From: Malacoraja senta
Taxonomy: Eukaryota
Length of the DNA: 64,000 nt
Assembly (NCBI GenBank): GCA_038087875.1
Contig: CM075994.1
Span: 3,846,001 to 3,910,000, forward strand
Direction of reading: 5' to 3'
Shown: positions 1 to 42,600 of the stretch, piece after piece
Layout: each line of letters opens with the position of its first letter
Numbering within the stretch: the first letter of the stretch is position 1
Position numbers and translations under genes: made by a program
The notes under the pieces: generated by a model
What the model was told of the DNA's origin: nothing
Seen by the model: only the letters and a program-made list of their open reading frames with translations
Database searches by the model: none

Positions 1-192
1 TCATCATCTCTCATAAACCAGTCAGAGTTTACTGATGCGATTAATGTCTTCATTAGTACAGTTGCTAGAGTTAATGGAGAGCAGACAGTAGAATGGGGTT
101 AGGGGTGAGACATAGATTCGCCATGATTGAATGGCGGAGTAGACTTGCTGAGCCCAATGGCCTAATTTTACTCATTTGACTTGTGGCCTTAT

Positions 193-862
193 GTCGTTGG
201 CAGCTCCGCCAACAGTCTGTCTGTTTTTTTCGTTTTTTTTTAATTTTTAGTGAGTGTTAAAAGTCTGTGTGAATGTTCTCTAGTTTGTTTTATGTGGGGG
301 GAGGGGGTGAGGGTCGGGGACAACTTGTTTTCAGTTTCATACCTTGCCGGAGAAGCGACTATTTTCCGGATCGCATCTTCGGTCGCTCTGTGGCCTATCA
401 TCGGTGGAGCTGGCGGACTCCTCGACTGGCTTTGTGACCCGCCGCGGGGCTTGGGCTTAACATCGGAGCCGATCCCTTCGGAGCCGGAGGGATCGCTCGA
501 ACCGCGGCCCGTGGATTTAGCATCAAGGACTCGCGGTCTCGGGATAGGCTAGACGGGATCTCCAAAGACACAGAGACTCGACCAGCCCCGATGCGAGGTC
601 CGATCGCAGGCGCGAGGGAGCTGACATCACCCCGATGCAGGAGCTGATCTTTCCGATGCGGAGGTCCCGGCAGCCGGCTGCGGGAGTCAAGATCGTCCCC
701 TCAACGTAAGGCTCGAGGCCCCTGTCCACGGGAGAGCAAAGAAGAGAAGACATTTGAACTTGTTATCGCCTTCCAATACAGCGAGGAACGTGGAGGAGTC
801 ACTGTGGTGGATGTTTATGTTAAAATGTATTTTGTGCGTTCCGTTTGTATTATTTGTATGAC
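193..862. repeat. GC-rich unclassified interspersed repeat
   Basis: Absent from paralog copy B; similar layout (GC-rich body next to a T-rich leader) to 29590-30480 in the opposite orientation. Confidence 0.5.
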
Positions 863-39600: not shown

Positions 39601-42600
39601 TGTGTAAAACTGTACCATAACTTTGGGTTCATGCACACAATATATTCCATGATTGATGCTGGTCGATAAGCCAAATCCTTCGTCGTTGACTGCACTTGCT
39701 CTCCCTAACACTCCCACGGACACATATGAGTGTACACCTCGCTCCCTTTGCTTTATATCACTCCCCAATGCCCACTGGTTTCTGTGAAGCCACACCCTAG
39801 TTCGAATTCACAAAAGCAATATCTCACACTTCATCTGAATTATACACCATTTGCCATTCCTCGGCCCATTTGGCCAGCTAATCAAAATCCCGTTGTAATT
39901 CTTCGTAACATCCAACACTGTCTGCAATGCCACCTTTTTTTTTATCGTCATCTGTGATTTTACTAATCGTGACTCATGCACACAGATTACAAGCAATTAT
40001 CTCAGCGCCGATCGCTGAGTTGCGCCAGTAGTTACAGACCTCCAATCCAACTAAATAAATTATTTCCCTGCATCCCATGCGATCAAACTTTCAGGGCCGC
40101 TTATTATGTGGAAACAGGTGAAATACTTTGCGGACGTCTATATCAACTACTTAGATATTTGTGTTCCTTTTTGCTTCCTTGTTCGTGGTTTCCTGGACCA
40201 TCCGTTCTCCCAGAGTCCCCGAGAACACTTGACCTCTTTCTCTCCGGTACAGAATCATACTGTTTACTATTGAAGATACAAGACCCGGCGTGGGGGTACC
40301 GCCATGAAGAACAATGGGGACCCGGCTTGCGGGGACCGCCGTGAGGGACGGTGGGATATCAAAGAGGGACCCGGTGTGGGGGAGGGGGGCACTCTAGATT
40401 TAGAATCCTCTGCCTAGGATAAAAGCCTGCGTTCGTTTGTTTGTACGTTCATTCGTTCGTTCCTGTCAAGGAACTGTGCACACAGCCGGTAGCCAACAGT
40501 CGCTTGTGCTTTTCTTTTTTTTTCACTTTTAATTTCAAATGTTCGCGTACCTTGTTGTGTGTTGTGACTGTTGGCAGAACAATTTCCCTCCGGGGATGAA
40601 TAACGTTTTATCGTAACGTATCGTACAAGAAAACGAACGGGCAAGGATTATAGTTTCAGCAGACTATGAAAATGAGAATTAGTCTAGGTGCCCATGTTAT
40701 CAATTGGGGCATCAGTACGGAGTTATGGTGTGCTATTCAGTTTTACACATATTTTGCCGTCCTACAAATGATTTAGAAGCACTTACAACAGTGAAAGATA
40801 GCTATTCTTTGATGCTGCCTCGAATTCTTGCAGCGATATTTGAACTTTACGCTATTACCTGTTATATATGTTTCAACAACTTGATGTAAATCTGGAGGTA
40901 AGCTAATTCAAATATTCATTTTTGAAGGATGTTAACCAGTTGGAAAATTTGCAAACATTGCTATTGATAGAAATGTTCAACAAAAAGCATGTTTTTGCAA
41001 GAACAATAGTCGATTGGGAGCTAAATTCAGAACTGAAACGGGGGATGAAAGCTCCCTAATCAAAACAATCAGTAAAAATGTGTTTTCTTTTAATTAAAAA
41101 CAATCAGTGATTTTAGTAGCTTTATAACATTACGGAGTTTGACATCACAACCAGTGCCGAATTAAGGATTATTTTGCAGGGCGCGTAATTCACAATTGTG
41201 CTGGCATTGAAGGATGTAGTGTTGGAAACAGCAGACACAGTATACTCGTTGCGTAGCTCAACAGTTTCCTACATTTGTAATGCTCACATATTAAGATGAT
41301 AATTATTTCTTCCAGAGAAGGAGTTGGCAGCAAAGGAAGATGGTGAGTTAGTTTCCACCATGATAATGTATTACTTCCTGACTGTCGAAAACGAACGTTA
41401 GGGATAGCCCCCAAAATAAACACAATTTAATTATTTAAATATTAATGATATAGGCCCCTAATTTGTAAATAACTAACGTTTCCTTAATTTGGGAATATTA
41501 CCTTTTAAACAATGCTTGTAAACGGTCCTCTGTAAAGTTAAGTCGTTAATCATAATTTGACTGAAGTAAAAGTTCAGCTGGTGATGATGAGTTAGTACAT
41601 TTCATTTTAATGAAACGACGTTCTCATATTTACTCTTTAGAGCTGAAAATAATCAAAGAATCCACGCACGGCAAAGGTAGACAAAACTGTATATGGTTTT
41701 GTATGGAATGTAAATTCTTTCGGAAGACTCATATAAAGCCAAAAAGCGCAACTGGTTGTTGAGGACGTGCGTCTGAATATGCTGAAGTTGAAGCTTCTTT
41801 GTCATTTGTGCAATGCGCCTCATCCAGTGGAATTAACGGGTTGACAGCGTGGGAATCACTTAAAAAGCGGAACGCGATCGGTGCGGACTCGGTAGGCCGA
41901 ATGGGGTGTTTCCGCGCTGTGCACCTCAATGTCCCAGAAATGGTATTTATTAGTAAAATAGCTGTTCTTGGCAGGATAAACATGAATGGAAAAGCAGATC
42001 CGTTGTCCTGCGTTCCAACCTACAAGTATAACGCAGGAGGGATGCGATATGCTTATGCAAGCTTGATCTAAAATTTACTTGGTGACAGGGGGCAGCTATG
42101 GGGATGGATCAGTGGTTTTCTGACGAATAATTTGTCACAATTGCTGAACCGCGACGTGTGTGACAATGTCGGTGGCCAGGCTTGTAGGTTTGATGTTTGT
42201 CGTACGCAGTTATTATTTTTCATATTTATCATATCTTTAAGAATTTTCGAAATATATCCGATCTCCCTTTCTCAGCATTTTAGACGTTACCATTTCACCA
42301 TTTTGGGAATAGCTTAAGTTTGAAATGTTCTTTCTATCTTAAAATCGTAATAATAACTGACAGGTCACTGGCAATGGTCAGTTATTTTATGAATATGTTT
42401 TTTTGTAGAATCGTGTGGGCTGGGTGAGTACAGAAGCTTTATTTATTCGTTTGCCCACAGAACCATATTATCATGTTAGCCATGACTTGAATGTCCCCGA
42501 ACATTGGGTACAATTTCAGTAACAGATCATGACGCTGATAGTCGCATTACGACGTCATAAGTTTTGAGCATGCTTCTGAATGCATGTTGAGGTCAATAAA

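Follow-up and report, generated by a model that had tools for sequence, protein, structure and literature searches.

The locus described here raises the question of whether a gene built from very small exons was lengthened from within, and whether both copies of the repeated part were then kept by selection. It lies in Malacoraja senta, in a window of 64,000 nucleotides (the whole stretch of DNA that was analysed) at 3,846,001-3,910,000 of contig CM075994.1, hereafter C18; a C18 position equals 3,846,000 plus the coordinate given here, negative coordinates are bases upstream of the window, and the flank comparison used 100 kb. An earlier note had described 1-17165 and 28644-41112 as collinear paralogs with conserved exon pairs, and had read them as an intragenic duplication that extended the tail of a protein. 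Self-comparison of the window revealed these collinear blocks, with matches of 76-90% identity, and with the flanks included a chain of 21 alignments paired -7292..17169 with 17212..41117, head to tail. The unit is larger than had been reported, being about 24 kb in size, beginning upstream of the window and including 17.2-28.6 kb. The chain covers 13,590 of 24,601 bases of copy A and 13,411 of 24,000 bases of copy B, and what remains unaligned consists of insertions that only one of the copies carries.

1..17169, + strand: copy A of the tandem unit, extending 7,292 bases upstream of the window
17212..41117, + strand: copy B of the tandem unit, with all nine exons

The copies abut, with 42 bases between them, and since the interval of 17-28 kb falls inside copy B, the objection that the copies belong to two genes no longer holds; the duplication lies within one gene, as had been proposed. 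Between the copies, 2,223 of 12,562 intron columns differ (17.7%, a low estimate owing to local alignment; K80 0.20), with 179 gap events, so that an assembly duplicate or a second haplotype is ruled out. Each copy displays nine exons of 27-36-27-27-27-36-27-27-36 nt, all in phase 1, amounting to 270 nt or 90 amino acids.

-5795, -4014, -1221 and -1031, + strand: module exons 1-4, copy A, upstream of the window
6629..6655, + strand: module exon 5, copy A, 27 nt (DEKLRELKA)
9959..9994, + strand: module exon 6, copy A, 36 nt
10798..10824, + strand: module exon 7, copy A, 27 nt
12163..12189, + strand: module exon 8, copy A, 27 nt
15384..15419, + strand: module exon 9, copy A, 36 nt; its donor would form the new junction to 20126
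20126..20152, + strand: module exon 1, copy B, 27 nt; 11 differences from -5795
25542..25577, + strand: module exon 2, copy B, 36 nt
27434..27460, + strand: module exon 3, copy B, 27 nt
27623..27649, + strand: module exon 4, copy B, 27 nt; identical to -1031
33386..33412, + strand: module exon 5, copy B, 27 nt
34384..34419, + strand: module exon 6, copy B, 36 nt
34988..35014, + strand: module exon 7, copy B, 27 nt
36579..36605, + strand: module exon 8, copy B, 27 nt
39059..39094, + strand: module exon 9, copy B, 36 nt

Counterparts of three exons (numbered 6-8 in the note), suspected just upstream of the window, are indeed present at -5795, -4014 and -1221, and a ninth pair with identical members (-1031/27623) had been overlooked. 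The five pairs already known differ at 4 (6629/33386), 1 (9959/34384), 3 (10798/34988), 4 (12163/36579) and 1 (15384/39059) nucleotides, and every amino-acid change listed for them (L/Q; Q/K; E/D with G/S; two pairs with silent changes only) was found again. Over the whole module, the peptides of the two copies can be told apart in exons 1, 2, 6, 7 and 8. Pair -5795/20126 differs at 11 of 27 nt, mostly through changes on copy A. Retention of the splice sites likewise held: AG and GT are kept in all nine pairs, for which the chance under neutrality is about 0.0009.

As had been noted, exons diverged less than introns in the five known pairs, with 13 of 153 nt differing (8.5%) versus 17.7% (binomial P 0.001). 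Changes were counted as synonymous or nonsynonymous by the method of Nei and Gojobori, with significance from the Fisher test. These five pairs revealed 9 synonymous and 4 nonsynonymous changes (dN/dS 0.10-0.12), the four added pairs 5.5 and 13.5 (dN/dS 0.48-0.62; P 0.11-0.22, not significant), and all nine pairs, comprising 90 codons, 14.5 and 17.5 (dN/dS 0.25-0.32; Fisher P 0.0006-0.004). The purifying selection claimed earlier is therefore real over the nine pairs, while its strength had been overstated from five of them. We counted 15 amino-acid differences versus 32 expected, a number as low being reached in none of 20,000 neutral simulations, and in 87% of the runs a stop codon arose. 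Polarised by the outgroups described below, the changes fall on copy A (7 nonsynonymous, 7 synonymous) and on copy B (4 and 6), with 5 and 3 unassigned, at a ratio of nonsynonymous to synonymous sites of about 3.4-4.1 to 1. Both copies were thus constrained after the duplication, and this signal supports the cautious wording that they are, or recently were, translated in the proposed frame.

Pairs 4, 6 and 9 are nearly identical (0, 1 and 1 differences), as they might be if gene conversion had kept the exons alike or if the copies were two genes. Conversion would lower the synonymous value, but synonymous divergence amounts to 0.23-0.27, at or above the intron value of 0.177, which points to constraint at the level of the protein, and two genes are hard to reconcile with copies that abut and with an interval between the earlier blocks that is copy B itself. 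We regard both of these explanations as exceedingly improbable.

Three paralogues on the same contig, at about 4.8-5.2, 5.4-5.6 and 5.75-6.1 Mb, served as outgroups. The nine-exon block is single in each of them (exon 6 was unrecovered in one and exon 1 in another), so the duplication is younger than the split of the paralogues and private to the window gene; in their aligned part, the paralogue introns are mostly 70-80% identical to either copy. C18 carries from about 3.64 to 6.1 Mb a cluster of micro-exon coiled-coil genes in both orientations, in a survey that covered this range outside 4.24-4.74 and 5.16-5.33 Mb, and at least two gene types were duplicated in it as a set, a second B30.2 exon lying at 5.710 Mb (71% identical). 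In the paralogue of the upstream neighbour at 5.66-5.69 Mb, a unit of two exons and about 800 bp occurs as four or more repeats, a younger event of rod lengthening. Near-identical blocks and a head-to-head join beside 200-base N gaps (-298 to -242 kb; C18 5.613 and 5.947 Mb) are possibly assembly duplications or mis-joins.

Among the insertions that separate the copies, one carries part of a receptor gene.

29149..32764: insertion bounded by inverted repeats with a TLR7 fragment, copy B only

This element of 3.6 kb has terminal inverted repeats of about 65 bp and is absent from copy A. At 31174-32300 it contains a TLR7 fragment from the ectodomain to the membrane part, which is interrupted by a stop (best solved match TLR7, E 1.6e-107) and finds 124 matches genome-wide; in each of the seven other copies retrieved, the fragment is present together with both ends of the element. 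The element is therefore likely to be a non-autonomous DNA transposon which picked up part of TLR7 and dispersed it, and its presence in copy B alone helps to show that the copies diverged separately. Among the literature listings searched, no paper on a TLR7-carrying element appeared. Two further insertions were observed in the first part of the window: at 7432-9704 a 2.3-kb insertion, found in copy A only, with inverted arms of 350 bp (86%) flanking GA-rich repeats, and at 1501-3998 a LINE fragment whose - strand holds an open frame of 535 codons and which, matching a copy at +157.6 kb with 97% identity, is a recent insertion.

The duplicated block belongs to a far larger array. Micro-exon calls on the + strand, made with a splice model trained on 24 window exons, extend between about -204 and +332 kb and begin again at +367 kb; over 540 kb, calls of 27 or 36 nt number 146 on the + strand versus 3 on the - strand, and the + strand calls are free of stops in phase 1 in 143 of 146 cases, versus 60 in phase 0 and 70 in phase 2. 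The array is not uniform. Segment A, the upstream neighbour, spans -204 to -112 kb with about 30 exons and ends in an intact B30.2/SPRY exon; segment B, the window gene, spans -92 to +63.7 kb with about 56 exons and about 535 residues (at least 530 of them rod residues); segment C starts near +77 kb and comprises about 100 exon calls, the first exon after the window, at +77,115, being 117 nt long and symmetric. In segment B, 29 of 55 exons measure 27 nt, 17 measure 36 nt and 3 measure 21 nt. The same gene repeats a 21-nt exon about five times between -78.7 and -71.8 kb; three of these copies retain their splice sites and two have decayed, a case of exon birth and death. At -241.9 kb, on the - strand, lies what we take from its peptide to be the first exon of an RBM4-like RRM gene, transcribed away from the array and 38 kb upstream of the start of segment A, and at +171.5 kb, on the - strand of an intron of segment C, a frame of 220 codons rich in IQ-like repeats resembles a piece of ASPM.

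Downstream of the copies, the window gene continues in single-copy exons to its likely end.

41316..59620, + strand: downstream single-copy micro-exons of the same gene, a block of 13 exons
41316, 41641, 42409 (15 nt), 44955, 45674 and 48197, + strand: downstream micro-exons, first part
48576, 48726, 54654, 55229, 56477, 57072 and 59597 (24 nt), + strand: downstream micro-exons, second part
62013..63700, + strand: likely last exon, as predicted from sequence, with a stop at 62021-62023

Paralogues support all of the downstream micro-exons except 45674 and 48197; a 53-nt candidate exon at 44,394 was dropped, the paralogues having no donor there. The acceptor at 62013 is conserved in all four copies; after it come the stop and an extended non-coding stretch that is likewise conserved and contains polyA-type hexamers at 63409 and 63614. 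A stop after three codons is present in three of the four copies, a reading that is weakened by the preceding exon, at the 59597 position, measuring 22-23 nt in two paralogues. No RNA data set was listed for 41,000-49,000 of the window; at 61,850-64,000, contigs from three small-share runs left the interval uncovered, and a DNA run of a near-identical organism spans all of it.

Assigning the segments to separate genes is open to challenge, as the three segments of the 540-kb array could form one transcription unit with alternative last exons, yielding a short form with B30.2 as well as long ones in which the B30.2 exon is skipped and which continue through the window. About 16 kb separate the 3' end of the B30.2 gene from the first conserved exon of the window gene, phase 1 is common to all exons, and the symmetric exon at +77,115 would fit such a unit. 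Against this, the B30.2 exon and the 62013 exon each carry a long conserved 3' stretch, the paralogous segments occur in differing orientations and combinations along the contig, and no family-type B30.2 exon lies downstream on the same strand before the next paralogue, 1.8 Mb away. A single unit seems unlikely to us, and it would leave the result on the duplication unchanged. A search of the assembly recovered just five B30.2 exons of the family type: three lie on C5, and C18 carries the other two, at 3.73 and 5.71 Mb. None lies downstream nearby, so that segment B is without a reachable B30.2, the domain being present only in its upstream neighbour. Those on C5, at 15.35 and 17.41-17.47 Mb, are older and share 37-39% identity with the C18 one; within the 30 kb fetched, micro-exon calls of 27/36 nt precede two of them and none precedes the third.

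At its 5' end, the window gene differs from its relatives. Likeness to the paralogues ends at -93.7 kb, where these go on with 15 to about 40 more micro-exon calls; upstream of that point we found here retroelement-rich DNA and segment A, with no assembly gap. The 5' half kept by the paralogues is thus lost. Three exons are frameshifted by one base relative to the paralogues, at -91.6, -69.5 and -59.5 kb (17, 28 and 26 nt), two of them with strong splice scores; the one at -69.5 kb would introduce a stop if used, and the one at -91.6 kb has gained an ATG in frame with the following exons. This 17-nt exon was rejected as a conserved start, the paralogues carrying an 18-nt internal exon there. 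The gene may have been functional at the time of the duplication and decapitated since, becoming a recent pseudogene in which the selection signal is a memory. The missing 5' half and the frameshifted exons speak for such a history, as does the acceptor of a 15-nt exon, lost in both copies. Yet about 52 paralogue-supported exon positions are intact by our own count, none of the 18 module exons is broken, the ATG of the 17-nt exon is in frame, and off-frame exons occur in the paralogues too (22-23 nt at the 59597 position), so that exon loss is common in the family. We consider a recent pseudogene improbable; the window gene was constrained for most of its history.

What kind of protein the exons encode was judged by the domains around them. 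The earlier note had called the encoded region a tail, a term that was not supported: searches around the gene and its paralogues found no exon for an Ig domain, a transmembrane segment or a signal peptide, and the neighbour opens with coiled-coil micro-exons. A cytoplasmic tail of an Ig receptor of the BG or butyrophilin type would nevertheless agree with heptad micro-exons that precede the last exon, as in butyrophilins, with the best solved match of the neighbour's B30.2, BTN3A1 (E 2.8e-24), and with hydrophobic residues at the start of two public family models. However, motif scans of open frames in the flanks and paralogues found no IgV or IgC exon among the frames listed, such Ig and B30.2 scans being fallible (the first motif missed the B30.2 exon, with its YWEI), and a weak V-set search, in which 150 of 1,517 candidates were scored, gave no hit on this contig. 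In addition, the neighbour starts with Met-Ser followed by micro-exons, as does its public orthologue, and the RBM4-like gene upstream of that start faces away. A receptor tail is, on these grounds, very unlikely. Neither the neighbour nor its orthologue displayed a signal peptide or transmembrane segment, no long domain exon besides B30.2 was seen in the array, and the neighbour's orthologues matched only PF00622, with no RING in their sequences and thus none of the RING and B-box domains of a TRIM protein. A search for MHC class I gave no match on this contig, most matches lying on unplaced contigs.

The relatives of the neighbour are found in other cartilaginous fishes. Its B30.2 shares 65% identity with a RefSeq model from Narcine and 49% with one from a catshark; these two proteins consist of a charged, helical N-terminus and B30.2, and show neither Ig nor RING nor a membrane segment. 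One B30.2 exon of this genome reaches 91% identity with a protein of Leucoraja. In the Narcine model SPRY is the sole domain match, with no Ig; segment A exons match this protein in order, from residue 3 on, its isoforms differ by whole, exon-sized blocks of 6-16 residues, and its N-terminal half folds as helices in a single-sequence prediction of mean pLDDT 54.5. XP_069775385 (Narcine), XP_038672308 (Scyliorhinus), XP_042191567 (Callorhinchus) and XP_055510696 (Leucoraja) share the same coiled-coil and B30.2 architecture, in exon-sized blocks. Their automatic names (A33-like, TRIM39-like, TRIM58, TRIM69-like) derive from B30.2 alone. These four models are orthologous to the upstream neighbour; they have 200-460 aa with B30.2, versus at least 530 rod residues and no B30.2 in the window gene. 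Exon types near 55229 and 56477 recur before the neighbour's B30.2 exon and in the Narcine protein, and the shared order of phase-1 exons of 27 and 36 nt places the window gene in this chondrichthyan micro-exon coiled-coil (B30.2) family. Weak protein searches with the Narcine rod for a long relative, and with the first exon after the window, found none, a representative-sequence search gave B30.2 matches only, and these searches yielded no database protein for the window gene. Literature searches found no paper on this micro-exon coiled-coil family. Enterophilins are mammalian cytosolic leucine-zipper proteins with B30.2, and they include a short form without it.

Among known systems, the nearest in exon design are the BG genes of the chicken. 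They encode a long coiled coil from many tiny exons with split first codons and lack B30.2, with IgV and transmembrane exons and tail exons of 21 nt (PMC4046983, PMC5938342), and their exon number varies from 13 to 36, with an apparent insertion of four exons (PMC5938342). The window gene resembles them in a variable exon number by block duplication and in lacking B30.2; it differs in its 27/36-nt exons, in having no Ig or transmembrane exon found, in kilobase introns and in gene sizes of 90-300 kb. Butyrophilins proper have kept IgV, IgC, TM and B30.2 across jawed vertebrates (PMC12841164). It is the neighbour, with heptad exons and then a single B30.2 exon, that is similar to butyrophilins such as BTN3A1, while unlike them no IgV, IgC or TM was found here, rod exons number dozens versus few, and the window gene is without B30.2. 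By these comparisons, the window gene would be neither a butyrophilin nor a BG nor a TRIM gene, and its exon design is like that of a BG tail.

The exons themselves point to a coiled coil. In segment B, the 12-residue exons are hydrophobic at positions 2, 5, 9 and 12 in 82, 94, 59 and 47% of 17 cases and the 9-residue exons at position 4 in 66% of 29, so that a pair of 36 and 27 nt spells three heptads. In the natural exon order, the 3.5-residue periodicity exceeded that of all 200 exon-order shuffles in each of four window sizes. Over the whole chain, the Fourier power at 3.5 is low and there is no single 3.5 phase, runs of 27-nt exons shifting the heptad register, and a segmented coiled coil is therefore predicted, of which the nine-exon block would form the middle. 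Since all exons are multiples of 3 in phase 1, the reading frame survives the duplication, loss or skipping of any run of them. At the new junction a 12-mer meets a 9-mer with leucine at position 4, and the hydrophobic pattern is kept.

We consider it probable that a 24-kb block was duplicated in one gene and selected, which likely lengthened a predicted cytosolic coiled-coil rod by 90 residues. The spliced product would be a long, segmented alpha-helical rod that dimerises; at the helical rise of 0.15 nm per residue, the added residues would give roughly 13 nm of extra helix. In members of the upstream-neighbour type, the rod would be tipped with a B30.2 binding domain, and the window member would act through its predicted rod alone. 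Chicken zipper protein, a soluble BG tail, binds and regulates the actin-myosin system of the brush border (PMC4046983). By analogy, and tentatively, for we find it rather doubtful, the window gene may encode a spacer or filament-binding scaffold of that kind, or a partner of its B30.2-bearing sisters. Somewhat better placed, though still short of probable, is the idea that the cluster is an undescribed, multi-megabase set of cytosolic rod proteins of cartilaginous fishes, rulers or scaffolds, whose length evolves by selected, register-keeping duplications, as an independent counterpart of the chicken BG tail released from its receptor; these rods could then be encoded almost wholly by exons of 9 and 12 residues, with a B30.2 tip in part of the set and a bare rod in the rest, as in the window gene.

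The intragenic duplication described here is real and was selected; it arose by an ordinary mechanism, in a gene family that is under-described. Duplication of exon blocks is known from chicken BG genes; what is new is a dated, selected rod-lengthening event with three outgroups, and a family member without B30.2. The event illustrates how very large micro-exon genes grow, by in-frame block duplication with the heptad pattern kept at the junction and the product retained by selection, in a gene type that escapes database searches, no protein match having been found for the window gene. Its B30.2-less member separates the job of the rod from that of the binding domain.
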